Below, one piece after another: positions 5,705-61,780 of a stretch of 64,000 nucleotides of DNA; position 1 is the first letter of the stretch, and every line of letters begins with the position of its first letter. A program made the translations under genes and the position numbers. The notes beneath the pieces are model-generated. The model saw nothing but the letters and a program-made list of their open reading frames with translations, was not told the DNA's origin and ran no database searches. This DNA is from Candidatus Uhrbacteria bacterium. Its GTDB lineage: Bacteria > Patescibacteriota > Patescibacteriia > UBA9934. The stretch spans positions 107,703 through 171,702 of the forward strand of contig CAWGHH010000002.1 in the NCBI GenBank assembly GCA_963822405.1, written 5' to 3'.

Positions 5705-6205
5705 ATGAAGTACTTCTTTGATGTTCGTGTAAGCGAGAAGATTCAGGCGTGGGGGAAGCCGCAATATAATATGTGGTACGTGTTTGCGGTTCATTTAATG
5801 TATGTTTACATTGCGAGTTGGATAATTTTTAGTGCGCTTGGTTGGCTGGTTTGGTGGACGGTGCCGGTCGTGGCGTTTTCAGCGTGGATTTTGACGTTGG
5901 GTACGCAGGTCATTGTGGCACGGGAGCGACCGAAATTCGAATCGACTACCGGGTATAAAATGTGGTGGAAGACTTACTCGTTGCCGAGCGGGCATGCGAC
6001 AATCTCCGCGGCCATAGCGACGGTGTTGCTTTTGACGACGCATTTTCCAAATTCAATTTGGTTGGTTGTTTTGGCGGTCGTTTATCTGATCATCGAAGTG
6101 CTAGTTGCTATCGGTCGAATCGTGGTCGGGGTGCATTATTTGGCTGACGTAATTGTCGGGTTTGTGCTGGGGATTGCGTTTGGGGTAATGTGGTCGGTGT
6201 TATGA
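5705..6205 (+). CDS. PAP2-family membrane phosphatase (undecaprenyl-diphosphatase / phosphatidate phosphatase type)
   Basis: 166 aa with several TM segments. PAP2 signature present: RERP...PSGH...GRIVVGVHYLADV (K/R-x6-RP, PSGH, SR-x5-H-x3-D). Confidence 0.75.
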   Translation: MKYFFDVRVSEKIQAWGKPQYNMWYVFAVHLMYVYIASWIIFSALGWLVWWTVPVVAFSAWILTLGTQVIVARERPKFESTTGYKMWWKTYSLPSGHATISAAIATVLLLTTHFPNSIWLVVLAVVYLIIEVLVAIGRIVVGVHYLADVIVGFVLGIAFGVMWSVL

Positions 6206-11791: not shown

Positions 11792-11794
11792 AAA

Positions 11795-13099: not shown

Positions 13100-13236
13100 A
13101 TATGCATTATTATAGTTGATCGACGGGCATTTTGTGATGGTGGGTGTGTATGAGGTTATGCACATTTAGTGATGGTTCGATCTCATGTTGGCAAATGTAG
13201 ATTATAATACGGTTATTCTTAACGAATGAATTTTCT

Positions 13237-13719
13237 ATGAAGAGCGCGCAAAGTGAGGCCAAAGGTTTTACACTTATCGAATTGTTGATCGTGATCGCTA
13301 TCATTGTAGTGCTCGCTGCTGCAGTTTTCGTGGCTTTGAACCCAGCTAAGCGTTTTGCTGATGCTCGTGATTCACGTCGTTCAAGCGATGTTACGAACAT
13401 TGTTGCGGCTTTGAAGACGGCGCAGGTTGATAACGGCGGAGCTTACATTGCTTCGGTGGTAGCTATGACCGCAGATACGGCCTATGTTATTGGTACTGAT
13501 GCTACCGGCTGTAATACAGGCTGCACTGCCCAGACAACTAATGCCGCGTGTGTTGATCTCACAGCTCTGCAGACGGCTGGTTACTTGGGTAGCATTCCGA
13601 TGGATCCTTCGAGCGGTGCCGCCACAAAGACAGACTACTATTTGATGAGAAACACTTCAGGCACGCTTACGGCTGGTGCTTGTGACCCAGAGAACGCACC
13701 TATCTCACTTAGCCGATAA
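13237..13719 (+). CDS. pilA: Type IV major pilin (PilA-like)
   Basis: MKSAQSEAKG-FTLIELLIVIAIIVVLAA is a textbook prepilin leader and N-methyl-Phe/Glu5 helix. Cys pairs could form a C-terminal disulfide loop. Divergent from pilB, with a strong downstream terminator. Confidence 0.8.
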   Translation: MKSAQSEAKGFTLIELLIVIAIIVVLAAAVFVALNPAKRFADARDSRRSSDVTNIVAALKTAQVDNGGAYIASVVAMTADTAYVIGTDATGCNTGCTAQTTNAACVDLTALQTAGYLGSIPMDPSSGAATKTDYYLMRNTSGTLTAGACDPENAPISLSR

Positions 13720-27096: not shown

Positions 27097-27189
27097 AGTC
27101 GATTTCTCGTTCAGTCATCCTGAGCTTCGCGAAGGATCTGATTGGATAACTCCCATAATCTTGATGAATATACGCTATACTATTCGCAT

Positions 27190-30100
27190 ATGCGTCTAGT
27201 ATTTTTTCGTTGGAAAAGCAAGGTCGTAGCTGTCTTGGCGCTCGTCGCCATGCTTGGCCTCATGACTTCATCTCCTCAACCAGCCTTTGCAGCTGTTATC
27301 ACCTGGGATAACGGCGGGGGAGATGGACTTTGGAGTACTTGTACAAACTGGCTAGGAGACGTTTGTCCAGGCACCGGTGATATTGCTACATTTAATCCAG
27401 CCGTATCGGATACCTCGTCAACAATTGATACACTATTCGGTGATTTCTTTTCGGCCACTGTCGGTGGTGTAAATATAATGACGGGTTTTACTGGAACTAT
27501 CACTCAGGCTCGGGCGGTCAATATTGGGACTAGCGGTTGGTCGCAGGATGGAGGGACACTTAGTGGAAGTGCTGATCCAGCTCATTATTTTGCGGTGAAT
27601 AACGGAACCTTTACACTTTCTAACGGTACATTCACTGCTCCGTCGGCTACGGCTCTTGAGCTGAATACTGCGGCTTTTGTAATCACTGGCGGTACGTTTG
27701 ATCCGAATGGTGGAACGTTGGAGGTTGTGGGTACGGCCAGTTCAGTGGATGTTCTGAACTCCTTTACCTTTTCAAACCTGACTGTACAAATGACCGGTTC
27801 GTCGAATATTTTTACGATTGCGGCTGGTGACACACTTATTGTTCCAGGGACGTTTGCTTTTATGAACGGTAAGATTAACGGCGGAACGGTTGAAACTCAG
27901 GCTGCTATGAGTACGGGCAGTCACCCTGTTTACCCTGACGGTGGTACGGGGACCATCATTATTGACGGACCAGCCGTCAGAACAATTACTTTGTCGACCA
28001 ATGCAGCTGGCGGTGTTTCATTGCCGAATGTTGTTTTGAATGCTGCGGATGTAACCATATATTCAGGAGCGAACGCGGCATTTACCAGCCTAACAATTCA
28101 GGCCGGAGCTATTCTCACGGAAGCTCGTGCCAGAAGTTTCTCGGTAGCTGGTAACTATCTGCAAAGTGGTGGCTCCGTAGACCTGAGTAATCTCCTTAAC
28201 GTTAACCTTTCCACTTTTTCAGTTACTGGTTTATTGTCAGTGACTGGGGCGACAGCTAGCCTTATTTTGGGAGAGACAACTCAAGTAGCTGGAGGTTGGA
28301 CACATACCGGAACGTCTACGATTAACGTTGGAACTGGACTTGTGACCATGCGACTGACTTCCGATATTAATCTTACCGGCGATGCTACATTTAATGACCT
28401 CATCATCAATTTTTGCTCGCCGAGCTTAGTGAATCATGCTGTTACGGTTGCTACTGGAGTCAACAATCAATTCATCGTGAATGGCAAGGCTTGGATAGAG
28501 GGTTGCGGATTCAATAACTTACTATTTTTGCAGAGCAACTCAAGCGGAGTGCAGGCAGACGTTGATTTTGCTGGTCGTACCACTATGTCTCGCGTAGTCA
28601 TGAAGGACATTAACAATTACGACGCAACTCCTGTTCAGTGTGTCAATCGATGTATGGATCGGGGAGATAACGCAGGTGTTACTTTTCTTCCCGAGAATCG
28701 GTTTATTTCCGTCGGAGCTGCTTACGCCGCGGCCGGGAACGCAACCACTGATACTTCGGAAAGTGGCGATTCAGTTCGAGTTGATGTTGTTTTGCGGTTA
28801 GCACCAACAGCCACAGTGACTATTCCAGTTGCTACTTCTGATGCAACAGAAGCTGAGTCGAACGTTAGTTCGTTAATTTTTACCACGGACAACTGGAATG
28901 TTCCGCAGACCGTTACTGTGACAGGTATAGAAGATTTGATCGACGATGATAGTATCTCCTACTCGCTAAATATCGGTTCGGCCACTTCTACCGATTTGGG
29001 ATATGACGGCCTTTCGATTAGTGTTCCTTTGAAAAATCGTGACAATGATACGACCGAGGGAAGGGTCGATTTCCAGAATGGTGAAGACTTAAATATCCTG
29101 TCTGGAGACATTCTTTCAGATGGCAGCAGTTTGAAATATAAAAATTGGAGCTCTTCGGATGTATATGATTCCAACGGCGCACTTGCCACGGTTCATGACA
29201 ATGTGATTTTCGATCCAGATGCCAATATGTTCTGGGAAGCTGATCAATCCAATAATCGGCTTCTAAAATTTGATCCGACTGGCGTGATAGATGTTACAGC
29301 TCCAATTGCCTCGCCAGCCAGTCCTTCTAAAGTTGTATATGACTCAACTCATTTAGCTATTTGGACTACATTTTCTGGTAGCTCAAACATTGTTAAGCTG
29401 GAATCTTTAAACGGAACGCCTTTTGATACCGATCTAGCTACGAGCACCTATCCAGTTGGTGGCATACCGGCATTTATAGCGTACGACGCAACTCAAGATT
29501 CAGTTTGGATTTTGACTGATGCCTCAGTACTTGTAGAGATTGATGCGGCGACTGGTGGTGTGTTGCATTCGTACGCAACATTAGTAAATGCAAGTGAACT
29601 AGTTTATGACAGCGTGAATAATAAACTTTGGACATTGACCAGGCCATTTAATTCATATTATGTTCTCGAGAAGATTGATCCTTTGACCGGGCTGACAACT
29701 AATACGTATCCGCTCCCAACGGTGACTGGAGATATTCAGGGGACAGTTCGTTTAGCTTTTGATGTAACGAATAACATAGTTTGGGTTTCAGATGCTCCGA
29801 GCAATGAGAGTGACGGTGCGGCTTGGGATAGCGTGGATTTTTTGATGGGTATTAATGGAGTTGATGGGACAGTTCGAGGAGTCTACGATTCAGACTTTTT
29901 AAGCCTAGGTTACCCAGTGGTGAATGAATATGATCAATTGGTGCATTACGGCTTACATTCATTCGCCATCACCGATGGGAGTCGACAAGGTGTGATAGGT
30001 GCTGAGATTGAAGCTGTTTCCGGTACTGGAGAAATGTGGAGTAATGGTAATTTGTACTATCACACGCTCTATTGGCCAAATGCTTATACAACAGCTACAA

Positions 30101-32733
30101 CAGAATATGGTGGTTTACTTCCTACCACTCTTTGGAGCACGTTAACGGAATATCCAAATGCAGAAATTACCAACGGTTCCTCTCTTTACACTTTTTCATT
30201 TAATAGTGGTTCAAGCTACTACATTTGGACCGGTTCAGTCTGGCGCGTGATCGCTTCTAGCTTAGCGGCTGATCATGGCAATGGAGACGGGGATTGGTAT
30301 TATAGAGATTCTGCCAACGGGTGGACATTCGACGCTACGGCAACTGCAACTAGTGCTATTCAGAACGCCATTCGTTACGCCAACGGAAGCAATGATATGA
30401 CTGGTGCAACAGCCCAGTCCTTGGCGCCCGGTACTTGGGAAAGTGCGCCCGGTTGGGTTGCATTGACTCCATTTCTTGCCTCTACCTCTTACTACACTCC
30501 AGACACGCTTATCTACACGGATACTTGGGCTAGTTTAACTGATGTTACGCTGAACGAAACTCTGGCTGGGCAAGGAGCTTATTACGCATTTTCATTTACG
30601 GACAGTGAAAAATTCTCCATTTGGACCGGTTCCGCTTGGCGAGTCATTGCCAGTTCTCGGACGGCTGATCACGGAGGAGCTGAATGGACCTGGTATTTCC
30701 GTGATGGTGCTAACGGCTGGGTAAATACTTTTGATACAAGTGGCTTTGACGACGCCATTCATTCTTTGAATTATGCAATTAGCGGTGTTGGATTCACGGG
30801 AGTAGTCCAAAATCAAATGACGGGCACTACGGTCAATGCATTGACCCAGGCTAACTTGAACGCGGCCGGTGGTTGGACTTTAGCTATGCCAATAGATGTG
30901 AGCGCCACACTTAAGACAACAAGCAGGCTCGTCACACCGTCCGTTCAGGATGCGACCTTCTCGTTTACTACTGGTTCGACTCCTGGAGTAGCAATTTCTG
31001 AGACCGCGAGTTCAACGGATGTCACAGAAGGCGGGGCGACGGACACGTATTCCGTTGTTTTAGATTCTTTGCCAACCGATAGTGTTGTAGTCACGGCCAC
31101 AGGCAACGCGGATGTTTCCGTTTCTGGACCATTGACCTTTACCGTTGGCAACTGGAACGTTCCGCAGGACATAACTGTTACCGCAGTTAATGATTCTATA
31201 GACGAGGTAAGTCTTGAGAATGCAACTATTACTCACGCTGCGGCTTCAACCGATGTTAATTATGATAGTGGTCTCTCGGTGGCTAGCGTAACGGCACACG
31301 TGACTGATAATGATGTTGCCGGTATTACGGTTGGCGCGATTTCTGGCCATACAACTGAGGCGCTCGTTACAGCAACATTTACTGTGGTTCTTGATACGCA
31401 GCCAACCGCTGATGTTTCAATCGGCGTCACGTCTGATGATACTTCTGAGGGCACGGTCTCACCGGCTTCACTCACGTTCACAAGCGGTAATTGGTCAACT
31501 CCTCAAACTGTTACCGCGAGTGGTGTAAATGATTCTCCGGTTGACGGCGATATCACATATCACATTGTTCTTGCGGCTGCTACTTCAGCCGACACGTTTT
31601 ATAGCGGAATAAACCCAGCTGACGTAACCGTGATAAATGATGATAACGACGTTCCATCGTCTGGAGGTAGTTCGTTTGTGCAGTTGCCATCGCCTACGTC
31701 TCCAGATTCTCATGCAGTTTCTGCGCCTACTTGTACGTCGGCCAGCTTGGTTAATGTGCTCATGTCGGCTCATAACGCAACTTCGTACATGCTCTCTATC
31801 GATGGGGCATTTGATACGGAATCGTGGCTCACATTCACACCCAACGTAAATGATTCAACTTGGGTAATCCCAACCATGAATCTTGGCGTGATGTTGCCGG
31901 AACCAGATGGGGAATACCTTATCTCTGTTCGGTATCGATCATCATCAGGAAACGTTTCATCGACTGTTTCAACTCAGGTACAGCGGGATATCGCTGGCGG
32001 TTGCGTGAATCCTTCCGTCATTCCTACGCCAGCAGAGCCAGCACCAACCGAAAATCAACCAACTCCAGGTGAGCCGGGTACTGGCACTACAATAATCGAA
32101 TATCAACCAGGATGTTTAAACATCAGCCGTCCAAAAGACCTAACAAGAAACATTATTGGTCGAGGTCTCTCGCCAATTACCGGCAAAGAAGAAGACATTA
32201 TTCAGCCTCTCCCGGGTGATTACATGCGCGCCCAGAATATCGACACTGTCTACTGTATTGATGCCTCGTCACGTCGACGACCATTTATTGACGAGACCAC
32301 TTATTTTACCTTCGAGCGTTCATTTGACCCGGTAGTTTTTGTGACAGACGCTACTCTCCCTACTCTGCAAATGGGTCCGCCAATGTTGCCTAAGGCCGGA
32401 GTGACATTAGTTAAATTCCGTTCCTCCCCAATTGTTTATCGAGTAATTGAAAACCCAGGAGATACAGATCATCGTGTGCTCAGGCCTCTCGCAAGTGAAG
32501 CTGTGGCCAAACTTAACTACGGCGAAAACTGGTCAGACTATATTATTGACGTAGACGAAAGTCTGAATGCCTGGTTCATTATCGGCGAGCCCATCACTGG
32601 CCTAGAACAAGAAAGCCTCAGCACCTTCCGTCCCCGAGATCTCCTCAATGAAGTCAGTAAATCAGTCGAGCAACAGCTCTCAAACTTCACTAACTTCCTC
32701 GGCGCAATTTACAATCGTATATTTGCGCACTAG
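27190..32733 (+). CDS. Very large secreted surface/adhesin-like protein (1847 aa from M17) with β-propeller-like and Ig/Calx-β-like tandem repeats and a conserved C-terminal domain
   Basis: Signal peptide MRLVFFRWKSKVVAVLALVAMLGLMTSSPQPAFA. Blade-like ~40-aa repeats around residues 680-900 (VYDS...W motifs). A duplicated ~95-aa unit (Y[TA]FSF...IWTGS[VA]WRVIASS..ADHG...W[YT][YF]RD[SG]ANGW). Three consecutive ~110-aa repeats (TVTA[TV]NDS..D) near residues 1290-1620. The C-terminal 125 aa are homologous to the 21243-21764 frame. Confidence 0.7.
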   Translation: MRLVFFRWKSKVVAVLALVAMLGLMTSSPQPAFAAVITWDNGGGDGLWSTCTNWLGDVCPGTGDIATFNPAVSDTSSTIDTLFGDFFSATVGGVNIMTGFTGTITQARAVNIGTSGWSQDGGTLSGSADPAHYFAVNNGTFTLSNGTFTAPSATALELNTAAFVITGGTFDPNGGTLEVVGTASSVDVLNSFTFSNLTVQMTGSSNIFTIAAGDTLIVPGTFAFMNGKINGGTVETQAAMSTGSHPVYPDGGTGTIIIDGPAVRTITLSTNAAGGVSLPNVVLNAADVTIYSGANAAFTSLTIQAGAILTEARARSFSVAGNYLQSGGSVDLSNLLNVNLSTFSVTGLLSVTGATASLILGETTQVAGGWTHTGTSTINVGTGLVTMRLTSDINLTGDATFNDLIINFCSPSLVNHAVTVATGVNNQFIVNGKAWIEGCGFNNLLFLQSNSSGVQADVDFAGRTTMSRVVMKDINNYDATPVQCVNRCMDRGDNAGVTFLPENRFISVGAAYAAAGNATTDTSESGDSVRVDVVLRLAPTATVTIPVATSDATEAESNVSSLIFTTDNWNVPQTVTVTGIEDLIDDDSISYSLNIGSATSTDLGYDGLSISVPLKNRDNDTTEGRVDFQNGEDLNILSGDILSDGSSLKYKNWSSSDVYDSNGALATVHDNVIFDPDANMFWEADQSNNRLLKFDPTGVIDVTAPIASPASPSKVVYDSTHLAIWTTFSGSSNIVKLESLNGTPFDTDLATSTYPVGGIPAFIAYDATQDSVWILTDASVLVEIDAATGGVLHSYATLVNASELVYDSVNNKLWTLTRPFNSYYVLEKIDPLTGLTTNTYPLPTVTGDIQGTVRLAFDVTNNIVWVSDAPSNESDGAAWDSVDFLMGINGVDGTVRGVYDSDFLSLGYPVVNEYDQLVHYGLHSFAITDGSRQGVIGAEIEAVSGTGEMWSNGNLYYHTLYWPNAYTTATTEYGGLLPTTLWSTLTEYPNAEITNGSSLYTFSFNSGSSYYIWTGSVWRVIASSLAADHGNGDGDWYYRDSANGWTFDATATATSAIQNAIRYANGSNDMTGATAQSLAPGTWESAPGWVALTPFLASTSYYTPDTLIYTDTWASLTDVTLNETLAGQGAYYAFSFTDSEKFSIWTGSAWRVIASSRTADHGGAEWTWYFRDGANGWVNTFDTSGFDDAIHSLNYAISGVGFTGVVQNQMTGTTVNALTQANLNAAGGWTLAMPIDVSATLKTTSRLVTPSVQDATFSFTTGSTPGVAISETASSTDVTEGGATDTYSVVLDSLPTDSVVVTATGNADVSVSGPLTFTVGNWNVPQDITVTAVNDSIDEVSLENATITHAAASTDVNYDSGLSVASVTAHVTDNDVAGITVGAISGHTTEALVTATFTVVLDTQPTADVSIGVTSDDTSEGTVSPASLTFTSGNWSTPQTVTASGVNDSPVDGDITYHIVLAAATSADTFYSGINPADVTVINDDNDVPSSGGSSFVQLPSPTSPDSHAVSAPTCTSASLVNVLMSAHNATSYMLSIDGAFDTESWLTFTPNVNDSTWVIPTMNLGVMLPEPDGEYLISVRYRSSSGNVSSTVSTQVQRDIAGGCVNPSVIPTPAEPAPTENQPTPGEPGTGTTIIEYQPGCLNISRPKDLTRNIIGRGLSPITGKEEDIIQPLPGDYMRAQNIDTVYCIDASSRRRPFIDETTYFTFERSFDPVVFVTDATLPTLQMGPPMLPKAGVTLVKFRSSPIVYRVIENPGDTDHRVLRPLASEAVAKLNYGENWSDYIIDVDESLNAWFIIGEPITGLEQESLSTFRPRDLLNEVSKSVEQQLSNFTNFLGAIYNRIFAH

Positions 32734-34536: not shown

Positions 34537-35299
34537 TTACATGCGCAAATTATTCGTTTTCATTCTTGCTCTCTTATTTCTGTCCGTTGTTTGTGGATCA
34601 ATTTTACTCGTGGGCGAGCAACTGCCAAGGGGTTTAACTCGACGAACACTGAATATTGACGATCGTCATATTGTGTTAGACGTCATGAATCTCACCGCGC
34701 AGAACCTGTCCATGAGCCTTCTGAACGAACCGTCAAACGCGCGGAACGTTAAAGAATGGCGAGCGTCCACGAACGCCGATCTCGTGATTAACGGCACTTA
34801 CTTTGACGAAAAGAATACGCCAACTGGTTTTTATTCTTTAAACGGTTCAGCCAGTGCCACGCCTTGGCCAAGGGCTGAGGATCAGCTGGCAACCGCTAGT
34901 TATTCTTTCTTGGTCGAGGTAGTGGACGGTAAGCTCAAGCTTTCGTACTTGCCAGACAATCCACGCACCGAACCGTCAGTGAACGGTTTTTTGTCATTTC
35001 CAACTTTAATCGCTGATGGCAAGTCGCTCGTCACCGCGGATACTGGCTTGCGTGCCCAACGCACCATGTTGGCCCAGGATGCTTCGGGTGGCGTCTACTT
35101 GATCACTATTGAAAAGGGCAGCGTATCCTTGTTTGAGGCCGCTACTTGGCTTCTCGCGCAACCCGAAGGCTTCGTCCTCGCGGGGAACCTCGATGGTGGA
35201 CCGTCGACTGGCATTTCATACACAGATGGCAAGCGAGTTTTTGACGAATTTTCGGCTCCGATTCCAAATGTTATTATAGGTCAATCGTATGGAAAATAA
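34526..35299 (+). CDS. Phosphodiester glycosidase-like (DUF2233-like) secreted/membrane-anchored protein, tentative
   Basis: N-terminal TM/signal segment. Motifs LVINGTYFDEKNTPTGFY and LAGNLDGGPSTGISY resemble the phosphodiester glycosidase family. Judged from memory of the family consensus only. Confidence 0.4.
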   Translation: MDFNYMRKLFVFILALLFLSVVCGSILLVGEQLPRGLTRRTLNIDDRHIVLDVMNLTAQNLSMSLLNEPSNARNVKEWRASTNADLVINGTYFDEKNTPTGFYSLNGSASATPWPRAEDQLATASYSFLVEVVDGKLKLSYLPDNPRTEPSVNGFLSFPTLIADGKSLVTADTGLRAQRTMLAQDASGGVYLITIEKGSVSLFEAATWLLAQPEGFVLAGNLDGGPSTGISYTDGKRVFDEFSAPIPNVIIGQSYGK

Positions 35300-37376
35300 T
35301 GGTTATAGAGAGCTTAAGATGAATCCCGAGGCTAAAGATTTTAGAAAGTCATTAGCCGATTCTTTGATTAGGGCTAGGAACTATGATGGGTCGGAGGCTT
35401 CTTACGAAAGCCTGATGTCGTCTCTGGAGGTTTTAGAGGAAACAATTGAAACATCCCCATCTGTTGCTGGTCATACGGTTCGGGAGAAGGAGATTGACGC
35501 AGCGTTTAGATTTGCTCCCATTAGACCAAAAGAAATTAATGATGTTTTAGAAATAGCTGAGCAAGCGGGTCGACGCCGACTCCATAAAAGCTTGCAAGCG
35601 TCTCTTGAAGATGGCTCTGATATACCAAATGGAGCTTTTGTTATTCACAGACTAGATGGGGTTATTCTCCCGCCCGGTAATATTCCTGGGCCGATAGCCA
35701 CGAATGAGTCGGGTCATGGGTTTGACGCTGTTTCCTTTGAACCTAGGCTAGAAGAAATAATAAGATTATTGACTCAAATTCAGATATTTTCTGACGATGT
35801 TTTGATCAGCATCGGGGAAGTATCGAAAGATGTAGTACGTAGCAAGAGTTATGCAGTGATAGAAATTCCTAGGCTTAATAAAACAATCCTAGTTTGTGAT
35901 GAAGTTGGCGAGGCGACCTTTATAGTTAAATCTTTGGCGTCAGCGGCAAACTTCTTGTCCACTAGAAAGCAAGACCTAACCGAACATTTTGGCGAAGACA
36001 AGGTTGTTAGAATAATTAGAAATCAAGCCTGGGAGAAAAATATTTTAGCAGTTTTGAATGATGAAGAACTGAGATCCGGCAAGCCTCTCAATAAAGTTGA
36101 TGTTAAAGAATACGAGCTTGATCAAGTGCGAGCGGCGGTAATTAAGCAGTGTCCGCTTGATGAATGGTTGCACATGAACCAGACCGAGCGTGAGCAGAAG
36201 AGAATTGACGGCCTTAGCTTACGTATCATTGCAACTATTTTTAATGTTCCGAAGCCCAAAAATGAGTATTTAAAAATAACTCATTTCAATTTAGGAAAAG
36301 AAATATTCGGTCCAGATCAAAAACTAATTAAGGAAATTGACCTGTTAACTAGAAGTGCAGAAGATTGGAAAGCTAGCGTAAAGAAAAAACTACCAACCGC
36401 TGAGGAGTGGTTGCGCATCAGTGGTCCTAAAAGGCGAGAACTCGATTTCGATGGAAAGAAGATGTCTGCTCTTCAGGGGGCATTTGGAATTCAAAATAGC
36501 GTACTATCGAGCACAAAGGCCTTTGTTCAATTGGGAGCCGAGATTTATGGCCAGGATGATCCGGCTATTAAATCTGCTTACACCGCGGCCATCTTGAAGG
36601 AGTCGGCTCTAGAACGAACTCCGGAAGAATGGCGACAGGTTATCAGGGGCAGGATGGATGCCGGTGTGTGGCTTCAAAAAATGAGTGAGTCCGGTTTAGA
36701 GCTCAATATCGACGGCATCGGGATGCGAAAATTGGCAAAAAAATTTAGTGTTCAAATCGGTTCGCCTAAGGTCACTATGTTTAAATTAGGTTTCAATATA
36801 TACGGACTAGATAATGAGCAACTATCTACGGCGTATGAATTGTTCAATAAAGAGCAAGAGAGAATTACGTGGTCAAAGGAGCAGTGGAGGGAGCATTTAT
36901 TGATTAAGTGTCCTGATTTTGCGACTTGGATTGAAGATGGAAAAAATCTAAAAGTATTTAATAGCAAAGTTGGATATTTGCCGTGGATAGCTAAAAGTTT
37001 TGGTTTTCCGTGTGACGGAATTCATGATCGAAACACTTTTTCCTTGTTATCAAAAGAGCTCTACGGAGTAGATCCTAGGAATACGGAATCAGCCGTGGTT
37101 TGGCGAAAGAAGGCCGATGCGGAGACCTTGAATCGAACAACAGATGATTGGCGAGCCCGAATTAAGCAGGAATTTCCTACGGCGCAAGACTGGTTGGGTA
37201 TGACAAAAGAGCAGAAACGTCATTTTTATGTCGATAAACTGAGCATGCGAAGATTATGGAGAGCATTCGGCCTTAAAGATATTCCTTCGGACAGTAACAT
37301 CCATACGAACGCTAATTTTTTGGTTCTCGGTGAACAGATTTACGGAGTTGATGATCCAACCATTGTCAGCCGCTAA
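35289..37376 (+). CDS. Hypothetical 695-aa protein with five ~90-aa tandem repeats
   Basis: From ~residue 270 there are five repeats. Each begins with a Trp-containing basic segment (VRAAVIKQCPLDEWL / DWKASVKKKLPTAEEWL / EWRQVIRGRMDAGVWL / EQWREHLLIKCPDFATWI / DWRARIKQEFPTAQDWL). Each ends with a [FL]xLGxEIYGxD[DP] motif (FNLGKEIFGPDQ, FVQLGAEIYGQDDP, FKLGFNIYGLDNE, LLSKELYGVDPR, LVLGEQIYGVDDP). Confidence 0.55.
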   Translation: MENNGYRELKMNPEAKDFRKSLADSLIRARNYDGSEASYESLMSSLEVLEETIETSPSVAGHTVREKEIDAAFRFAPIRPKEINDVLEIAEQAGRRRLHKSLQASLEDGSDIPNGAFVIHRLDGVILPPGNIPGPIATNESGHGFDAVSFEPRLEEIIRLLTQIQIFSDDVLISIGEVSKDVVRSKSYAVIEIPRLNKTILVCDEVGEATFIVKSLASAANFLSTRKQDLTEHFGEDKVVRIIRNQAWEKNILAVLNDEELRSGKPLNKVDVKEYELDQVRAAVIKQCPLDEWLHMNQTEREQKRIDGLSLRIIATIFNVPKPKNEYLKITHFNLGKEIFGPDQKLIKEIDLLTRSAEDWKASVKKKLPTAEEWLRISGPKRRELDFDGKKMSALQGAFGIQNSVLSSTKAFVQLGAEIYGQDDPAIKSAYTAAILKESALERTPEEWRQVIRGRMDAGVWLQKMSESGLELNIDGIGMRKLAKKFSVQIGSPKVTMFKLGFNIYGLDNEQLSTAYELFNKEQERITWSKEQWREHLLIKCPDFATWIEDGKNLKVFNSKVGYLPWIAKSFGFPCDGIHDRNTFSLLSKELYGVDPRNTESAVVWRKKADAETLNRTTDDWRARIKQEFPTAQDWLGMTKEQKRHFYVDKLSMRRLWRAFGLKDIPSDSNIHTNANFLVLGEQIYGVDDPTIVSR

Positions 37377-47378: not shown

Positions 47379-48314
47379 CTAATGACTAAGGTTGGACACG
47401 TCTCCCGTTAGGTTGTTGATGTCGCCTTCAAGGTGGCTGACGTCGCCCTTAATGTTCGTGACGTCGCCATTGATGTAGGTGACCGTACCCCTGATGTTCG
47501 TTGTATCTCCGTAGAGGTACATCACGTAACCAGAGATGTTCGTCACGTTGCCACGCAGGTTTCCAATGCTACCGCCGAGGTCGCCCACGTCGCCAGAGAT
47601 GTTCGTGACTTTTCCCTTGATGTTCGTGACGTCGCCAGAGATGTTTGTTGCGTCACCGTGAATGTTCGTCGCATCGCCAGAGATGTTCGTCACGTTGCCA
47701 CGCAGGTATTCAACGTTACCTTTGAGATCGCTGACGTTGCCCCTGATGTTCGTCACGTTGCCGTTGATGTTGCTGACGTCACCAGAGACCTGTGTCACGT
47801 GTCCGAAGATAACGCCTGCAAAGCCCGAGATGTTGGTTACGTTGCCTCCCAGGTTCCCAACGTCGCCACTGAGGCCGCTGACGTTGCCCCTGATATTCGT
47901 CGTGTCGCCGGTGATGTTGGTGACGTCGCCGGTGATTTTCGTCGCATCACCGTAGATGTTCGTCGTATCGCCGGTGATATTCGTCACGTTGCCCCGCAGG
48001 TGTTCAACGTTGCCTTTGAGACCGCTTACGTCGCCCGTGATGTTCTTGACGGTGCCGTAGATGTTAGTGACGTCACCCGAGAGTTGTGACACATCTCCGT
48101 AAATACTGCCTGCGTTTCCGCAGACATGGGACATGTCACCGCGGATGTTGGGTGTGACCCCGCGGAGGGTACACGCCTTAGTGGACGTAGCCGGCGCGGA
48201 CGGGGCGGCAACCGTGGCCTCGGGCATGTTGCTCGTGGGCGCAGAGGTCGCCTTAGGCGTCTCGCCCCCACAGGCAACAAGCGAAAGGAGAAACAGCAAG
48301 CTGAAGGAACGCAT
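47379..48314 (-). CDS. Lipoprotein built from 37 uninterrupted heptapeptide repeats ([DN]-V-[ST]-N-[IL]-x-G)
   Basis: Start placed at MRSFSLLFLLSLVACGG (ATG at 48314; strong SD ggggagg 7 nt upstream; lipobox LVAC). A Pro/Ala/Thr linker follows. From ~residue 52 to the C-terminus every 7th residue is Gly (TPNIRG DMSHVCG ... DVTNITG DTTNIYG DATKITG ... DVSNLSH). The repeats are also visible at DNA level. Confidence 0.65.
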   Translation of the reverse strand: MRSFSLLFLLSLVACGGETPKATSAPTSNMPEATVAAPSAPATSTKACTLRGVTPNIRGDMSHVCGNAGSIYGDVSQLSGDVTNIYGTVKNITGDVSGLKGNVEHLRGNVTNITGDTTNIYGDATKITGDVTNITGDTTNIRGNVSGLSGDVGNLGGNVTNISGFAGVIFGHVTQVSGDVSNINGNVTNIRGNVSDLKGNVEYLRGNVTNISGDATNIHGDATNISGDVTNIKGKVTNISGDVGDLGGSIGNLRGNVTNISGYVMYLYGDTTNIRGTVTYINGDVTNIKGDVSHLEGDINNLTGDVSNLSH

Positions 48315-48455
48315 GAAACCTCCCCAATAGGGTGAACGAATGGCACCAAAAGTGGCGCCGTTCGACCAACTAAAATAACAGAAAATTAGCACTCCGTCAA
48401 CGTAAGACGCCTGCGGTGTATTATAGATATGGATATTTTGTTAAATCATTAATAC

Positions 48456-48487
48456 AAAAAGCCACTTCATGGCTGAAGTGGCTTTTT
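48456..48487. terminator. Bidirectional rho-independent terminator hairpin
   Basis: aaaaa-gccacttca-tggc-tgaagtggc-ttttt. Perfect 9-bp stem with symmetric A/T flanks, directly abutting the 3' end of the minus-strand tRNA. Confidence 0.55.
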
Positions 48488-48561
48488 GGTGATCTCACCG
48501 GGAATCGAACCCGGATCTGCACCGTGAGAGGGTGCCGTCCTAACCGTTAGACGATGAGACC
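48487..48561 (-). tRNA. tRNA-Glu (anticodon CUC), CCA encoded
   Basis: Reverse complement is GGTCTCA TC GTCTAACGGTTAGGAC G GCACC CTCTCAC GGTGC AGAT CCGGG TTCGATT CCCGG TGAGATC A CCA. 7-bp acceptor stem (one G-U), D arm, anticodon loop cuCUCac with U33/A37, T-arm GGTTCGATTCC. Confidence 0.8.
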
Positions 48562-48668: not shown

Positions 48669-49574
48669 ATGACCATTTTGCAATACAGAAGTGATTGGAG
48701 GGCTTGTCGGAAATTTTTGCGGGTGCATAGTAAACAGTACGCATTTATTACGTATTTTTTTCCGTCAAAAACTCGAAAAGCAGTAGAGATTCTTTATGCG
48801 TTTATTACTTTGCCGGAAGGTATAGTTGATAACCCAATTCTAGAGAAGACAGATGACGTTAAGAAGCATCTTGAACATTGCAAAGAGGTTTGGCGTCAGG
48901 CTTATGACGGTGTGGCTAGATGGTCAGAAAAAGTTGATGTTCCTAGTCATTGGATTCCGGTTTTGAGAGCCTCGGCCAAAGTATTTCATGAGTACGGCAT
49001 TCCCTATAAATATAGTGAAGAATATTTCAACGCTGCTATTCAAGATACAGAAAAATCAGAATATCAGACGTACAGCGAGCTTGAAAAACGGATGTACGGC
49101 GCTTCATCGGTAGTCTGTTTGATGATGGCGTACGCTATTGGTTTTACGGACAAGCGAGCACTGTTATTTGCGGAAGAGTTCGGTTATGCGTTAGAGCTTA
49201 CAAATGTTTTGCGGAACATCAAGAAAGATTTAGAAGAACGGGGAGGCATGTATCTGCCAAAGGCTGAACGAGATTCTTTTGGGATTACTAAAGAGAGTCT
49301 TCTCGCTCATACGGTAGATGAAACATTTACCAGATTCATGGGTTTCCAAATGAGCAGAGCGCGGGCGTTGTATGTGAGTGCAGATGAGGGGATAGACTTG
49401 CTCCGCGAAGAAGGGAGATTTCCGGTGCGTCTATTCGCAACTTTTTGTGAATCAGTTCTGGACGAGATCGAATCAAATAAAAGCGACGTGTTCACAAAAG
49501 ATCCGCGCACTTCTTTTTCAAAGAATATTTCGCTGGCGTATAGCGTGTGGCGAGCGGAGAAGACTAGGCGATAA
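48669..49574 (+). CDS. Squalene/phytoene synthase-family protein (head-to-head isoprenoid synthase fold) with degenerate Asp-rich motifs
   Basis: AVEILYAFITLPEGIVDN aligns to the first conserved region ALYAFCRxADDIVD. NVLRNIKKDLEERGGMYLP aligns to NILRDVGEDxxxGRxYLP. The catalytic DxxxD/DxxED acids are partly replaced (EGIVDN; RNIKKDLEE). Confidence 0.55.
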   Translation: MTILQYRSDWRACRKFLRVHSKQYAFITYFFPSKTRKAVEILYAFITLPEGIVDNPILEKTDDVKKHLEHCKEVWRQAYDGVARWSEKVDVPSHWIPVLRASAKVFHEYGIPYKYSEEYFNAAIQDTEKSEYQTYSELEKRMYGASSVVCLMMAYAIGFTDKRALLFAEEFGYALELTNVLRNIKKDLEERGGMYLPKAERDSFGITKESLLAHTVDETFTRFMGFQMSRARALYVSADEGIDLLREEGRFPVRLFATFCESVLDEIESNKSDVFTKDPRTSFSKNISLAYSVWRAEKTRR

Positions 49575-49606
49575 ATAACGGCTCAGTCTGCTATCATTGT
49601 AAGTAT

Positions 49607-50185
49607 ATGACGACTCTACAGAAAAATACCTTACTATTTCTAGGTTTATTAGGTTTCGCTCTAGTTATTGACGTAATTGCGGTGAAGACAGGTTTTCCTT
49701 ACGGGTACTTTTGGTATGGGGAAGGCTTTGGACCGGCTATTTTCCAGGTGCCAGTCGCTTTTATCTTTGGTTTCCCGGTTTTGTATCTTGGAGCAAGTGC
49801 GGTGGCTAACCGCGCAGGTGTCTCGCCGGGCATTCCGTTTATGCTAACTGTAGCTTGTATAACGTTGGCCGTGGCGTTGATAGTCGAGCCGTGCGCCGTA
49901 GCCCAAGGTCTTTGGTCTTATAGAAATGGGGGAGAATATTTAGGCGTGCCAATTGGAAACCTCGCTGGTTGGTTGTTCGTTGGCTCGCTCGCCGCCTCTT
50001 TGTTTCCGAATAAATGGAGAAGTGAAAAAGCTGTGGCGATGTTGTTACTCGTGGTTATCGGCTCGACACTTCTCGCGATTCTGCATGGCTTAATTATTCC
50101 CGCAATCATCGGCCTACTTTTCGCTTTAGTAGTTTCTTGGTTCGATCTACGAAAGCATGGTTGGCAATCTGGTAATCAAGTATGA
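49607..50185 (+). CDS. Hypothetical polytopic membrane protein adjacent to the isoprenoid synthase homolog (possibly carotenoid/isoprenoid-associated)
   Basis: 192 aa with 5-6 TM helices and motif FPYGYFWYGEGFGP. The link to carotenoid-associated membrane families rests on gene context only. Confidence 0.35.
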   Translation: MTTLQKNTLLFLGLLGFALVIDVIAVKTGFPYGYFWYGEGFGPAIFQVPVAFIFGFPVLYLGASAVANRAGVSPGIPFMLTVACITLAVALIVEPCAVAQGLWSYRNGGEYLGVPIGNLAGWLFVGSLAASLFPNKWRSEKAVAMLLLVVIGSTLLAILHGLIIPAIIGLLFALVVSWFDLRKHGWQSGNQV

Positions 50186-52972: not shown

Positions 52973-53227
52973 ATGAAGAAGACTCGGGTAAATCATAGAA
53001 ATTCGTCGTACTCGGCAGTTTTTGAGGAAGACGCCGAACGTGGGGGATTCACGGTAACAATTCCTGCTTTGCCTGGGTGTATCTCCGAAGGGGATACGTT
53101 CGAAGACGCGCAAGCGAATATCAAGGAAGCCGCCGAGTTATATCTAGAAGTAGCAACTAATACACGTCGTTCACGGGCGTGGAGAGATGCTCGAGTGATT
53201 GTAGCTCCAGTTAGTGTGGCAGCATAA
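52973..53227 (+). CDS. hicB: HicB-family antitoxin (UPF0150)
   Basis: YSAVFEEDAERGGFTVTIPALPGCISEGDTFEDAQANIKEAAELYLE is the HicB N-terminal RNase-H-like fold signature. Two nt separate it from hicA. Confidence 0.7.
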   Translation: MKKTRVNHRNSSYSAVFEEDAERGGFTVTIPALPGCISEGDTFEDAQANIKEAAELYLEVATNTRRSRAWRDARVIVAPVSVAA

Positions 53228-56818: not shown

Positions 56819-57655
56819 ATGTCTGACGATCAAAACAAGTATATTGCGATCTTCAAGAGCAAGGAAATTCGGAGGATCATTCATAAAAATGAATGGTGGT
56901 TTTCGGTTATCGACATCATCGAAGCCTTAACTGGCACTGACAGAGGTAGGAAATATTGGAGCGATTTAAAGAAAATGCTCATCGATGAAGGATTTATTGA
57001 ACTGTCCGAAAAAATCGGACAGTTGAAAATGATGGCATTGGACGGCAAGATGCGAGATACCGATTGTGCCGATACGGAAACAATGTTTCGCATTATTCAA
57101 TCCGTCCCATCACCGAAAGCCGAACCTTTCAAGCGTTGGTTAGCGAAGGTCGGCTATGAACGTATTCAAGAGATTGAAAATCCCGAGCTAGCGTCAAAAC
57201 GCGCTAAGCTACTATACAAGCTCAAGGGCTATCCCGAGCAGTGGATCGAAAAACGAATGCGTGGTATTGCGGTTCGAAATGAACTGACCGATGAATGGGA
57301 TAAGCGCGGCGCGAAAAAACAAAAAGAGTACGAGATACTCACTGCTGAAATTTCGAAGGCATCATTTGGCGTAACGCCCGCGGAGTATAAGAAATTGAAG
57401 GGACTCAAGCGGGAGAATCTACGTGATCACATGGATGACCTCGAACTGATCTTGACCATGCTCGGCGAACAGACGACAACGGAAATTCACCGCAAGAATG
57501 ATTCTCAAGGATTGCCAAAGTTGAAGGGCGACGCAAAGGCGGGAGGAGCTATCGCTGGCTCTGCTAGAAAGCAAATCGAGAAGAAACTCGGCAGACCAAT
57601 TGTTTCAAAAGATAACTTTCTGGCAAACGACAAGAAGAAAAAGATAGGGAAGTAA
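56819..57655 (+). CDS. Bro-N domain protein (phage anti-repressor-like DNA-binding protein)
   Basis: IAIFKSKEIRRIIHKNEWWFSVIDIIEALTG... DGKMRDTDCADTETMFRIIQSVPSPKAEPFKRWLAKV fits the Bro-N consensus (F.F....IR......wFva.DvaeaLg ... dg.....r...fi.e.glY.li..S..P.A..FkrWv). C-terminal half is Lys-rich. Confidence 0.55.
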   Translation: MSDDQNKYIAIFKSKEIRRIIHKNEWWFSVIDIIEALTGTDRGRKYWSDLKKMLIDEGFIELSEKIGQLKMMALDGKMRDTDCADTETMFRIIQSVPSPKAEPFKRWLAKVGYERIQEIENPELASKRAKLLYKLKGYPEQWIEKRMRGIAVRNELTDEWDKRGAKKQKEYEILTAEISKASFGVTPAEYKKLKGLKRENLRDHMDDLELILTMLGEQTTTEIHRKNDSQGLPKLKGDAKAGGAIAGSARKQIEKKLGRPIVSKDNFLANDKKKKIGK

Positions 57656-59504: not shown

Positions 59505-59705
59505 AAGTGGGCGGAAGTATATAGGAAGGATTGAAATTAGTCAAAGTTTTTGGCACCCTTTTTGACAAACCCTAGCGTTTTTTGTAAGGTCACCCGTTCC
59601 TTGAATGTTTATCGAACACATTCCGGGTCCAAGTTAGCGGGGAGAAAGTTCGAGACAGTGAAAGTGACTAACATCTATTGGCGAATTCTCGCCAAGGAGG
59701 ACGTG

Positions 59706-61691
59706 ATGAAGGTTCAATTGTTTGCACTCATGGGCCTGATGCTCATGGGATCGTGTGGCCCTGCCGGCGTGAGCCTGCAGGAAGACTCCGGCGACAGCGC
59801 CGTGTCGAGCGGCTTCTACGCGCTCGACGGGACCGAAGAAGCTCGCTTGAGCTGTAACGGTACGATCGAGGTCCACAACTTCGACCAGGACTCGTTCGGT
59901 CGGGAATACTGCGTGGCGCTCGGTACCTCGAGCCTCCCGTTCTTCGCGACCACCGTCGGCGACTGCAACGACGGCGACCCGCTCATCTACCCCGGCGCCC
60001 CAGACCCTACGGTCGATGGCGTCGATCAGAACTGCGACGACGTCGACGGCCCTTTGCAGAACGGAACCTTCTACAGGGACCTCGATGGCGACGGGTACGG
60101 CAAAGCGTCGAGCGGCACGAGCACGGTTCAGGGTACCGGCTTCGTGACGAGCAACACGGACTGCGATGACACGAGCAACCTCGATCACCCGAACGCGGCC
60201 GAGGCCTGCGACGGCATCGACAACGACTGCGACCACCTCGTGGACAACGGTGCGCCGGGGAGCGCGACGTGGTACGGGGACGCCGACAAGGACAACTACG
60301 GGATCTCCACGCAGACCGTGGTGGCGTGCATGAAGCCGGCGAACTACGCGGTTCAGGCCGGTGATTGCAAGGACGACGACATCACGATCCACCCCGGCGC
60401 GGCGGAAACCTGCGACGGCAAGGACAACAACTGCGACAACCTGGTGGACAACGGCGCAACGGGCGCCAGCACCTGGTACGCGGATGTGGACGGTGACACG
60501 GCCGGCAGTAGCGTGCACGGTACCGTCACGGCGTGCGCCCAGCCCCAGGGGTTCGCCGCGAGCAACAACGACTGCGACGACAACAACTTCGCGCGGACGC
60601 CCGGCAAGACCGAGGTCTGCGACGCCATCGACAACGACTGCGACAACGTCGTGGACGAGGGCGCGGGCAGCGTGTACTTCGCGGACAAGGACGGCGATAC
60701 GATCGGCAGTTCGGTGTACGGCACCACCACGGCGTGCGCCCAGCCCACGGGGTACGTCACGACGAGCACCGATTGCGACGACAACAACTTCGCGCGGACG
60801 CCCGGCAAGGCCGAGATCTGCGACGGCGTCGACAACAACTGCAACGGTGTCGTGGATGATGGTGCGACTGGCATCATCATCTGGTACCTGGACGTGGACG
60901 GCGACAGCTACGGCGTGAACGGGCTCATCTCGAACGCCTGTGCCAAGCCGAGCAACTACGCCATCCAGGGCGGTGACTGCAACGACGCGAACGGAGCGAT
61001 CAAGCCCGGCGCGTCCGAGTCCTGCAACGGCGTGGACGACAACTGCAACGGGCAGGTCGACGAAACGTGCAACTCCGTCACCTACTACAAGGACAACGAC
61101 AACGACGGTCACGGGAGAGCGAGTAGCGGAACGAGCACCTCTTCGGGCAACGGGTTCGTCACGAGCAGTGATGACTGCAACGACGGCGACGCCCAGACCT
61201 ACCCCGGCGCGCCTGAGACCCGGGTCAACGTCGACAGCAACTGCGACGGCACGGCTTACACCGGCTCGAACAGCGGTTCGTGTCCGACCGGCCAGAGCAA
61301 GTTTGCGGGTTCGTTCGTCGGCTCGGGCACGGGAAACATCATCCTGTCCGATTCGTACTTCGACATCCGGGACACCGTGAACGGCGTCAACTACCTGCCT
61401 TGGGCTCACGTCAGCACCGGTACGCCTTCGGGCATGACGGTGTCGACGAGCGGCAACAAGGTGACGTTCGCGTATGACGTGTGTCTGCCGGACACCGTGA
61501 TCAAGACGGTGTCGTTTACCTACTACTACTCGAACGACTCCCAGGTTCGCTACAGCTGTGAAGGCGGCGCGAACAACACGCCGACGAACTTCACTGGCGT
61601 GTGGACCATGACGAGCGACGGCTTCTCGACCCCCGTGTCGAAGGCGCTCAGCGGAAACCCCGTGACGGGCTGCGTCGGCACCTACTACTAG
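59706..61691 (+). CDS. Secreted Cys-rich repeat protein with seven 'putative metal-binding' (Myxococcus MopE-type) motifs; compositionally foreign (~65% GC)
   Basis: Start MKVQLFALMGLMLMGSCGP with SD aaggagga. Seven repeats of DC[DNK]D....[YH]PGA.E.CDG.DN[DN]C[DN]..VD[DE]G. These alternate with WY.D.DGD.[YI]G loops (WYGDADKDNYG, WYADVDGDTAG, YFADKDGDTIG, WYLDVDGDSYG, YYKDNDNDGHG). GC content is visibly far above the flanks. A 714-aa antisense ORF (59634-61778) is a high-GC shadow. Confidence 0.7.
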   Translation: MKVQLFALMGLMLMGSCGPAGVSLQEDSGDSAVSSGFYALDGTEEARLSCNGTIEVHNFDQDSFGREYCVALGTSSLPFFATTVGDCNDGDPLIYPGAPDPTVDGVDQNCDDVDGPLQNGTFYRDLDGDGYGKASSGTSTVQGTGFVTSNTDCDDTSNLDHPNAAEACDGIDNDCDHLVDNGAPGSATWYGDADKDNYGISTQTVVACMKPANYAVQAGDCKDDDITIHPGAAETCDGKDNNCDNLVDNGATGASTWYADVDGDTAGSSVHGTVTACAQPQGFAASNNDCDDNNFARTPGKTEVCDAIDNDCDNVVDEGAGSVYFADKDGDTIGSSVYGTTTACAQPTGYVTTSTDCDDNNFARTPGKAEICDGVDNNCNGVVDDGATGIIIWYLDVDGDSYGVNGLISNACAKPSNYAIQGGDCNDANGAIKPGASESCNGVDDNCNGQVDETCNSVTYYKDNDNDGHGRASSGTSTSSGNGFVTSSDDCNDGDAQTYPGAPETRVNVDSNCDGTAYTGSNSGSCPTGQSKFAGSFVGSGTGNIILSDSYFDIRDTVNGVNYLPWAHVSTGTPSGMTVSTSGNKVTFAYDVCLPDTVIKTVSFTYYYSNDSQVRYSCEGGANNTPTNFTGVWTMTSDGFSTPVSKALSGNPVTGCVGTYY

Positions 61692-61780
61692 GTGAATGGG
61701 TGAGTCGGTGACTCTTGGGCGCCTTTGGACTTCGGTCCAGGGGCGCCTTTTACTATGTTGTGATAATCTGTTCGGCATCT

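Follow-up and report, generated by a model that had tools for sequence, protein, structure and literature searches.

In a 64,000-nucleotide stretch of a Candidatus Uhrbacteria contig (CAWGHH010000002.1, positions 107,703 to 171,702; hereafter called the window) two adjacent genes on the same strand, open reading frame (ORF) A and ORF B, are the two survivors of a five-gene operon of the C50-carotenoid (bacterioruberin) type. The ancestral operon encoded a polyprenyl diphosphate synthase, a phytoene synthase (PSY, the product of crtB), a CrtI-type desaturase, an elongase of the UbiA/LyeJ type and the CruF hydratase, and it was located between glmS and a block of staphylococcal-type nuclease (SNase), PEBP, dnaG and rpoD genes in an Uhrbacteria-like lineage of Patescibacteria. 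The reading that we regard as probable is that the pair is the remnant of this decayed operon, in which the PSY has been exapted as a pseudoenzyme, or for an altered chemistry, and stands beside a truncated CruF, both of them being under selection. The interval given in an initial annotation that was made from the sequence by eye matches ORF A and ORF B exactly, and both genes were recovered at 100% identity in an independent assembly from another run (locus L001), which shows that the pair is not an assembly artefact. What the initial annotation missed is the five-gene operon stump itself, the confinement of motif loss to lineages without the desaturase, the truncation and degeneration of the CruF, and the purifying selection on both genes. 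The parts of the interval are listed below.

48669 to 49574, plus strand: ORF A, 301 amino acids (aa); squalene/phytoene-synthase fold, catalytically degenerate, derived from crtB
48795 to 48830, plus strand: motif region 1 of ORF A, residues 43-54, YAFITLPEGIVD; family consensus YAFFRLPDEIVD
49089 to 49091, plus strand: codon of R141, in the slot of the catalytic Tyr (CrtM Y129)
49194 to 49259, plus strand: motif region 2 of ORF A, residues 176-197, ELTNVLRNIKKDLEERGGMYLP; consensus QLTNFLRDIxEDxExRGRIYLP
49607 to 50185, plus strand: ORF B, 192 aa; membrane protein of the Caroten_synth/CruF family, six predicted helices
50182 to 50760, plus strand: gene for a membrane-anchored SNase (PF00565, E 2e-26)
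48487 to 48561, minus strand: tRNA-Glu(CTC), the left boundary, directly upstream of ORF A

Fold, family and damaged active site of ORF A

ORF A matches the PF00494 (SQS_PSY) profile with an E value of 2.4e-42 and 145.9 bits (cut-off 26), its residues 17-282 covering positions 1-258 of the 263 in the profile, and it thus lies above the gathering threshold of this family across the full domain. The AlphaFold2 model of ORF A, which has a predicted local distance difference test score (pLDDT) of 92.1 and a predicted template modelling score of 0.90, consists of 14 helices, and in a Foldseek search it matched the CrtM-like structure 8is8 with template modelling (TM) scores of 0.84/0.92. The next matches were carbazole prenyltransferases (7vws), CrtM, 5iys, HpnC 4hd1 and YisP 3we9. 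The predicted model thus has the all-alpha prenyl-synthase fold, and the squalene/phytoene-synthase fold that had been recognized by eye is borne out by the profile match as well as by the structure. Every NCBIfam equivalog model scored far below its curated cut-off on ORF A, those for HpnD, CrtB and HpnC reaching about a fifth to two-fifths of it: the three CrtB models gave 104.2 against 550, 78.5 against 500 and 67.5 against 480, HpnD gave 115.1 against 278.6, and HpnC gave 91.9 against 250.45.

The motifs of ORF A were placed by phmmer alignments to four solved structures, namely the CrtM-like 8is6, the phytoene synthase 5iys, Staphylococcus aureus CrtM and HpnC 4hd1, and all four alignments agree with the placement that had been made by eye (EGIVD and NIKKD). 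They pair YAFITLPEGIVDN of ORF A with YAFCRRADDIVDE, by which DDxxD becomes E50-G51-x-x-D54, and NVLRNIKKDLEE with NILRDIGEDLDN, by which DxxED becomes N183-x-x-K186-D187. From CrtM numbering to that of ORF A the changes are R45 to T47, D48 to E50, D49G, Y129 to R141, Q165 to E176, D172 to N183 and E175 to K186, and the R of the GRxYLP motif is G193 in ORF A. The residues that are kept are D52 (D54), N168 (N179), R171 (R182), D176 (D187) and YLP. Of these positions, Y129, Q165 and N168 of CrtM are catalytic or Mg-coordinating residues (PMC13304436), and D48 and D52 are the metal-binding aspartates, of which ORF A keeps D52 only. In terms of their roles, the residues lost are the diphosphate-binding Arg, one Asp from each Mg motif together with the Glu of the second one, the Gln on the catalytic side and the catalytic Tyr; half of the six residues of the second-motif set are changed (Q165, D172 and E175). 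The initial annotation had described a partial loss of the Mg-binding acidic residues, which is correct, and the damage is in fact wider than described there as it also takes in R45, Y129 and Q165. ORF A departs from a functional CrtB or CrtM in the first motif with R45, in the second motif with Q165, N168 and R171, in the catalytic Tyr and in its equivalog scores.

When the ten key positions, which in canonical enzymes read RDDYQNRDED, were examined in the 150 nearest proteins (cluster representatives from a set of 1.84 billion) together with the 13 homologues found first, these residues were present in 139, 139, 140, 141, 145, 143, 147, 147, 130 and 150 of the 150, respectively. The key positions are therefore 87-100% conserved, and all except E175 are conserved to at least 93%. 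The slot of CrtM Y129 is occupied by Y in 141 of the 150 and by F in 7, and ORF A has R141 there. Because the key positions are so highly conserved among its nearest relatives, the deviations of ORF A are far from what chance would give. Across the whole protein, 78 PSYs from intact clusters have 69 positions with a conservation of at least 90%, here called invariant, and ORF A has lost 23 of them, including R45, D48, Y129, Q165, D172 and E175.

The ancestral operon in relatives

A word-indexed search found 13 close homologues of ORF A, most of them with the canonical motifs DE(I/L/M)VD and D(I/L)xED; the only degenerate ones are those of the window, P0002 (81% identity) and P0004/P0005. A scan of the species genomes in GTDB gave 80 loci from Candidatus Uhrbacteria, other Patescibacteria, Saccharibacteria, Peribacteria, Margulisbacteria and Pyrinomonadaceae, with a CruF homologue about 2.4 kb 3' of the PSY gene. 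The genes around PSY in the relatives are a polyprenyl synthetase gene upstream, a gene for a desaturase of the Amino_oxidase/CrtI type with about 500 aa, and, on the minus strand, a gene for a UbiA prenyltransferase. By tblastn and Pfam the order polyprenyl_synt-PSY-Amino_oxidase(CrtI)-UbiA(-)-Caroten_synth was found in L043, in L004 and altogether in about 75 of 88 loci. The genes crtI/crtD, lyeJ and cruF constitute the gene set of the bacterioruberin pathway with the functions given for them in PMC11946383, where CruF is the C50 carotenoid 2'',3''-hydratase of Haloarcula japonica, and bacterioruberin genes have already been reported in Patescibacteria (PMC9948471). The expectation in the initial annotation that head-to-head condensation of isoprenoids would be surprising in a reduced-genome symbiont is not supported, because complete clusters are common in metagenome-assembled genomes (MAGs) of Patescibacteria and have been published.

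Compared with the CrtB/PSY proteins of bacterioruberin-type clusters in Patescibacteria, Margulisbacteria and Pyrinomonadaceae, ORF A is a direct orthologue by its 35-64% identity and by synteny. It resembles them in fold, in length and in its place upstream of cruF and the SNase gene, but it differs from them in the loss of 23 of 69 invariant residues, in having no adjacent polyprenyl synthase, CrtI or UbiA gene, and in a rate of evolution that is about three times higher. In the relative with the most complete syntenic cluster, the P0006 contig (JGI 3300050046), a DNA photolyase gene that is absent from the window lies between cruF and the SNase gene, and this fits a role of the ancestral pigment cluster in protection from light or UV.

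Stepwise loss of the partner genes

The loci of the close relatives lie within a common frame, RNR - PBP - Mur ligase - glmS(-) ... SNase - PEBP - (SIMPL) - dnaG - rpoD - bipA(-) - MopE-repeat protein. The SNase gene is the constant right-hand syntenic anchor in all of them, and in the window its start and the stop of ORF B overlap by 4 nt, and it is probably co-transcribed with ORF B. On the left, the tRNA-Glu gene occupies in the window the slot in which the relatives carry the polyprenyl (GGPP-type; GGPP is geranylgeranyl diphosphate) synthase gene upstream of PSY. The contents of the slot between the two sides of this frame form the following series.

P0006 contig and L083: polyprenyl synthase-PSY-CrtI-UbiA-CruF (229-233 aa), with canonical motifs
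L084 and L085: polyprenyl synthase-degenerate PSY-orf178(-)-short CruF (188 aa)
L088: CruF-polyprenyl synthase-degenerate PSY
Window and L082: degenerate PSY-short CruF, without the polyprenyl synthase
L090 and L092: short CruF (188-190 aa) alone before the SNase gene, with no detectable PSY remnant

When proteins from L043, L004, L010 and L083 were used as tblastn queries, no polyprenyl synthase, CrtI or UbiA gene was found in the 64-kb window, and by Pfam there was no isoprenoid gene among the other genes of the window. The upstream isoprenoid genes (GGPP or farnesyl diphosphate (FPP) synthase) that the initial annotation had proposed to look for are thus absent from the window, to which this search was confined, and so is the full crtE-crtB-crtI-lyeJ-cruF cluster. 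In an indirect probe, no close CrtI was placed on the 352,527-bp contig of the window among the 120 best homologues of the L083 CrtI (at least 57% identity). No pseudogene fragments of PSY, CrtI or UbiA were found by tblastn without a low-complexity filter in L090 (a contig of 897 kb that carries the label Patescibacteria group bacterium), L092, L082, L084 or L088.

The 178-aa orf178 of L084 (10909-11445, minus strand) and L085 (4302-4838, minus strand) is Arg-rich and membrane-like, takes the place of CrtI and UbiA, and has no Pfam match. It was considered as a UbiA remnant and rejected as it has no similarity to UbiA (E about 1). It is itself conserved, with a ratio of nonsynonymous to synonymous substitution rates (omega) of 0.085 between L084 and L085.

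The PSY tree and the distances of SNase, PEBP and GlmS favour a single loss in an ancestor of the window, L082, L084/L085, L090 and L092, with L083 outside this group, but the DnaG identities place L083 near L092 and run counter to that grouping. L088 and L087 are clearly separate loss events. The PSY of L087 (7457-8897) degenerated independently (R45Q, D52N, D172R and E175K). Its gene follows immediately 3' of a lipocalin gene, in surroundings that are free of carotenoid genes, and L087 and the 897-kb contig of L090 were both recovered from JGI sample 3300037810.

The state of the active site follows the gene content of the locus. Among the 88 loci, each PSY that has a CrtI beside it shows RDDYQNRDED at the ten key positions, the single exception being one D52N. 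The PSYs with four to seven deviations, which are those of the window/L001, L082, L084/L085, L088/L089 and L087, are all without a nearby CrtI or UbiA; three canonical PSYs also have no nearby CrtI. With independent lineages counted, motif state and gene context are associated with p = 2e-5 in Fisher's test. Some of the changes are shared (G150C and E186K) and others are lineage-specific. The numbers of the 69 invariant positions that are changed are as follows.

PSYs of intact clusters: 0-2
Window: 23
L082: 20
L084/L085: 23-24
L088: 31
L087: 11

Rate of evolution and selection

In a neighbour-joining tree of the PSYs the window and L082 group with L084 and L085 in 200 of 200 bootstraps, and L083/L002 is the sister of this clade (93.5%). 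Measured from P0006, the PSY of the window is at a distance of 0.72 and that of L083 at 0.47, with branches of about 0.37 and 0.12, respectively, which is an acceleration of about threefold. Measured against the outgroup L088, the SNase proteins of the window, L083 and L084 show equal distances, as do the PEBP proteins, and the acceleration of the degenerate PSY is therefore specific to that gene.

When the degenerate PSYs of L084 and L085 were compared, the synonymous rate (dS) was 0.435 and the nonsynonymous rate (dN) only 0.018, giving an omega of 0.04. Between the window and L082, which have 81% amino-acid identity in the PSY and 79% in the CruF, the proportion of nonsynonymous differences (pN) is 0.118 for the PSY and 0.135 for the CruF, much as in the neighbouring SNase gene (0.118), and the proportion of synonymous differences (pS) is about 0.75-0.80; since this pS is saturated, omega is incalculable for this pair and all that can be said is that pN is far below pS. 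The short CruFs of L090 and L092 gave a pN of 0.149 against a pS of 0.70. These substitution patterns indicate that the degenerate PSY and the short CruF have both stayed under purifying selection. The constraint is unevenly spread in the PSY, as the window and L082 differ at six of 11 key sites compared with 18% of the other sites (p = 0.008). Conservation of the scaffold alongside drift in the active site is what a pseudoenzyme, or a protein whose activity has changed, would be expected to show, whereas neither a working phytoene synthase nor a neutral pseudogene would.

A mosaic of dS values was seen when, in the near-identical strains L084 and L085, L084 10001-12684 was compared with L085 3393-6077: dS is 0.44-0.66 in the polyprenyl synthase and degenerate PSY genes and 0.04-0.07 in orf178, the short CruF and SNase genes, which suggests a recombination breakpoint just 3' of the PSY gene.

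ORF B, a truncated CruF

ORF B belongs to the PF04240 (Caroten_synth) family with an E value of 7.8e-25 and 88.5 bits (cut-off 25), residues 5-175 covering positions 24-208 of the 209 in the profile, and its structure model has six long helices. Carotenoid 1,2-hydratases are also placed in PF04240. The proposal in the initial annotation that a polytopic membrane protein accompanies ORF A as a carotenoid-associated partner is thus confirmed in kind. The sequence FPYGYFWYG in ORF B corresponds to the conserved TGxPYGxFxY motif of the PF04240 family, and the gene descends from the cruF that closes the cluster of the relatives. It falls short of all three CruF equivalogs, scoring 72.3 against 154.7 for TIGR03460, 72 against 300 for NF041333 and 27.4 against 400 for NF045693. 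Unlike CruF, ORF B is without the N-terminal 40 or so residues of the full-length protein, which form the first helix (192 aa compared with 219-285 aa), and 18 of 42 conserved positions are changed, acidic and Trp residues included (E22D, D90A, D94E, W50, W56 and W153). The 42 positions were defined by a conservation of 85% or more among 48 CruFs from intact clusters. All the short forms have lost the first helix and have 17-21 of the 42 positions changed, compared with seven in the CruF of L083 and 0-4 in other CruFs. Nine distinct short sequences nevertheless have 35 invariant columns in common, and the short form, unlike CruF, persists at loci without a PSY. A Foldseek search of the ORF B model against the PDB gave no match at E <= 0.001, and no link to CruF was found in the paper on the Lipocone superfamily.

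Possible course of events and alternative explanations

In the window lineage three genes were deleted from the locus, those for the desaturase, the elongase and the enzyme that makes the C20 substrate. After the loss of these partners the PSY evolved about three times faster than its sister in an intact cluster, with a third of its invariant residues replaced, and in CruF the first helix disappeared together with almost half of the conserved positions. ORF A would have kept the all-alpha prenyl-synthase fold and its hydrophobic cavity, and could now bind or hydrolyse, and not condense, an isoprenoid or another lipid. The short CruF would act in the membrane largely independently of the degenerate PSY, as it persists where the latter is gone (L090 and L092), and the two are probably not an obligate pair. 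It can be inferred that ORF A no longer makes phytoene and that no carotenoid comes from this locus. By analogy with other proteins of this fold ORF A is most likely an exapted pseudoenzyme or a protein of altered chemistry, and our most plausible guess for its role is the binding or hydrolysis of a lipid or prenyl compound, because the PSY fold has non-condensing uses in YisP, HpnC, carbazole prenyltransferases and NDUFAF6. The initial annotation had left it at a divergent but active enzyme or a non-catalytic homologue; with 23 of 69 invariant residues lost and with the GGPP synthase, desaturase and elongase missing, it is a loss of the ancestral catalysis that is favoured.

Several observations weigh against an exapted remnant under selection. 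ORF A keeps the last Asp of each motif (D54 and D187), N179, R182 and YLP, and Mg2+ can be ligated by Glu and Asn, an example being the NSE/DTE motifs that class I terpene synthases carry, which means that residual or altered catalysis is possible. A GGPP synthase or other crt genes could be located elsewhere in the genome, beyond the 64 kb that were read directly and the one contig that was probed indirectly. The changes D172N, Q165E and Y129R are unique to the window lineage, and with synonymous sites saturated against L082 a very recent loss of constraint in that lineage alone may have occurred. In L090 and L092 the degenerate PSY has disappeared altogether, and hence it is dispensable in close relatives, which fits a slow decay as well as it fits exaptation. 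A scan of 48.3-51.5 kb for promoters and terminators gave nothing above the shuffled expectation and no plus-strand promoter 5' of ORF A, and no obvious Shine-Dalgarno sequence was found upstream of it; an extended -10-like element, TGgTAAAAT, is seen by eye about 20 nt 5' of the ATG of ORF A but carries no weight.

The slow decay just mentioned leads to the view that both genes are functionless relics of reductive evolution, pseudogenes-in-waiting that are open only for lack of elapsed time. The loss series ends stepwise in the complete absence of PSY (L090 and L092), the enzymes that would supply the substrate and those that would act downstream are missing, a third of the invariant residues are gone, and the window protein, with its private changes at D172, Q165 and Y129, is among the most deviant homologues. 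We nevertheless consider a relic unlikely. The omega of 0.04 between L084 and L085 was reached after the motifs had already been lost, and the window and L082 keep 81% and 79% identity at saturated synonymous sites just as SNase does. Both ORFs are intact (301 and 192 codons), the fold of ORF A is predicted with confidence, and the short CruF has at least nine members with their 35 invariant columns. As both genes have remained open under strong purifying selection until their synonymous sites were saturated, they would not be mere dead relics. That ORF A is still an active head-to-head synthase making phytoene or dehydrosqualene, with E50/D54 and N183/D187 as Mg ligands and with the other genes elsewhere or their products supplied by the host, is more improbable still. 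It is true that N168, R171, YLP and the last Asp in each motif are retained, that the gene is under purifying selection and that only part of the genome was inspected. However, the ten key positions are essentially invariant in about 75 PSYs next to CrtI, and the window protein has changed six of them and 23 of the 69 invariant positions; among the changed residues are the equivalents of Y129 and Q165, for which a part in catalysis is indicated in PMC13304436. Even the window and L082 disagree at key positions, and an active site still at work would not be expected to vary in this way. The window has no polyprenyl synthase, CrtI or UbiA, no close CrtI was seen on the 352.5-kb contig by the indirect probe, and the equivalog scores are far below their cut-offs.

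Exaptation could also have taken a more specific form, in which the degenerate PSY and the short CruF are a maintained module for handling lipids or isoprenoids, ORF A binding or dephosphorylating lipids scavenged from the host and the short CruF modifying or inserting them. The lipids may be polyprenyl compounds or carotenoids of the host, and the dephosphorylation may be like that of YisP. The independently degenerate PSYs of L087, beside its lipocalin gene, and of L088 fit this theme, but on balance we think such a module doubtful. If it were true it would be a case of a bacterial terpenoid synthase exapted for lipid acquisition in organisms that are unable to make their own lipids. As to the two ways in which the initial annotation could have failed altogether, the alignments show changed motifs where a misplacement by eye would have left intact ones, and an unrelated all-alpha protein is refuted, leaving practically no chance for either, by the Pfam match (E 2.4e-42), by the agreement of the four alignments to solved structures, by the TM scores of 0.84-0.92 to the CrtM-like structure and by the synteny with canonical PSYs.

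Comparison with other non-condensing proteins of the fold

Degenerate proteins of the squalene synthase (SQS)/PSY fold were already known, and ORF A adds another variant. YisP of Bacillus subtilis keeps the first Asp-rich motif and is without the second. Its structure 3we9 is matched by the ORF A model (Foldseek E 3.5e-7, TM 0.68/0.82), and the two are alike in having the PSY fold, which in YisP no longer serves head-to-head condensation and in ORF A probably does not either. YisP is an FPP phosphatase that converts FPP to farnesol (PMC10148934). In ORF A, unlike in YisP, both motifs and the catalytic Tyr are damaged, and there is no specific sequence relationship, as YisP was not among the sequence matches. 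HpnC (4hd1) is the best sequence match of ORF A among solved structures (E 3e-12) and has the same fold and a non-condensing role, but unlike ORF A it has kept its acidic motifs (DIDRD). In NDUFAF6, a eukaryotic complex I assembly factor with an SQS_PSY domain, the fold has also been recruited to a non-condensing role. The origins of NDUFAF6 and HpnC differ from that of ORF A, which derives from CrtB within the last few tens of percent of divergence.

The locus provides an unusually clean natural series of the dismantling of an operon in reduced-genome bacteria of the candidate phyla radiation (CPR)/Patescibacteria, in which the desaturase and elongase went before the substrate synthase, then the committed synthase, with the homologue of the membrane hydratase as the last to remain. 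The decay of the PSY catalytic site tracks the loss of partners almost perfectly while the fold stays selected, which is the signature of the birth of a pseudoenzyme. A caution for annotation also follows, as the labels 'phytoene synthase' and 'carotenoid biosynthesis protein' would mislead for this lineage, and a capacity for pigment, retinal or bacterioruberin inferred from such labels in MAGs would be wrong for it. If the pair has a new role related to lipids, it would bear on how CPR bacteria handle lipids derived from the host.

Other features of the window

The variable slot between glmS and the cluster is filled in the window by a gene on the minus strand (47379-48392) for a predicted lipoprotein of 337 aa with a lipobox-like LSLVAC|GG, nearly the whole sequence of which is made up of heptad repeats G-[DN]-[VAT]-[TS]-N-I-x. 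Its weak matches to numerous coiled-coil families of Pfam are spurious, and long ORFs run antisense to it; in the relatives the same slot has a KilA-N gene (L082) or ORFs of unknown type (L084 and L090). A HicB/HicA toxin-antitoxin pair (52973-53227 and the next ORF; by Pfam on L001) lies between the SIMPL-like gene and dnaG, and a gene with a Bro-N domain (56819-57655) lies between rpoD and bipA. As neither is present in L083, L084, L090 and L092, they are probably mobile insertions.

The only gene related to lipid phosphates that was seen in the window encodes a PAP2 phosphatase (5705-6205), which could be an undecaprenyl diphosphate phosphatase. Type IV pilus genes at 10709-13719 encode a PilC-like T2SSF protein, a PilB-like T2SSE ATPase and a prepilin with an N_methyl motif. 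An ORF of 1863 aa (27142-32733, plus strand) has no Pfam match at E <= 1e-5, nor do two further ORFs of 522 aa (22577-24145) and 695 aa (35289-37376) have matches, and all three are of the giant or orphan type that is typical of CPR genomes. A GC-rich island at 59550-61778 (61.6% compared with a background of about 47%) encodes a protein of 713 aa with at least seven Cu-binding_MopE repeats (E 1.5e-64); an antisense ORF of 714 aa in the island has no family match and is probably an artefact of the GC-rich repeats, and MopE-repeat proteins are syntenic in L090 and L092. Finally, the GC skew is positive in nearly all 2-kb bins from 1 to 64000, the cumulative skew rises monotonically and the genes are mostly on the plus strand, which is consistent with the whole window lying on the leading strand of one replichore.

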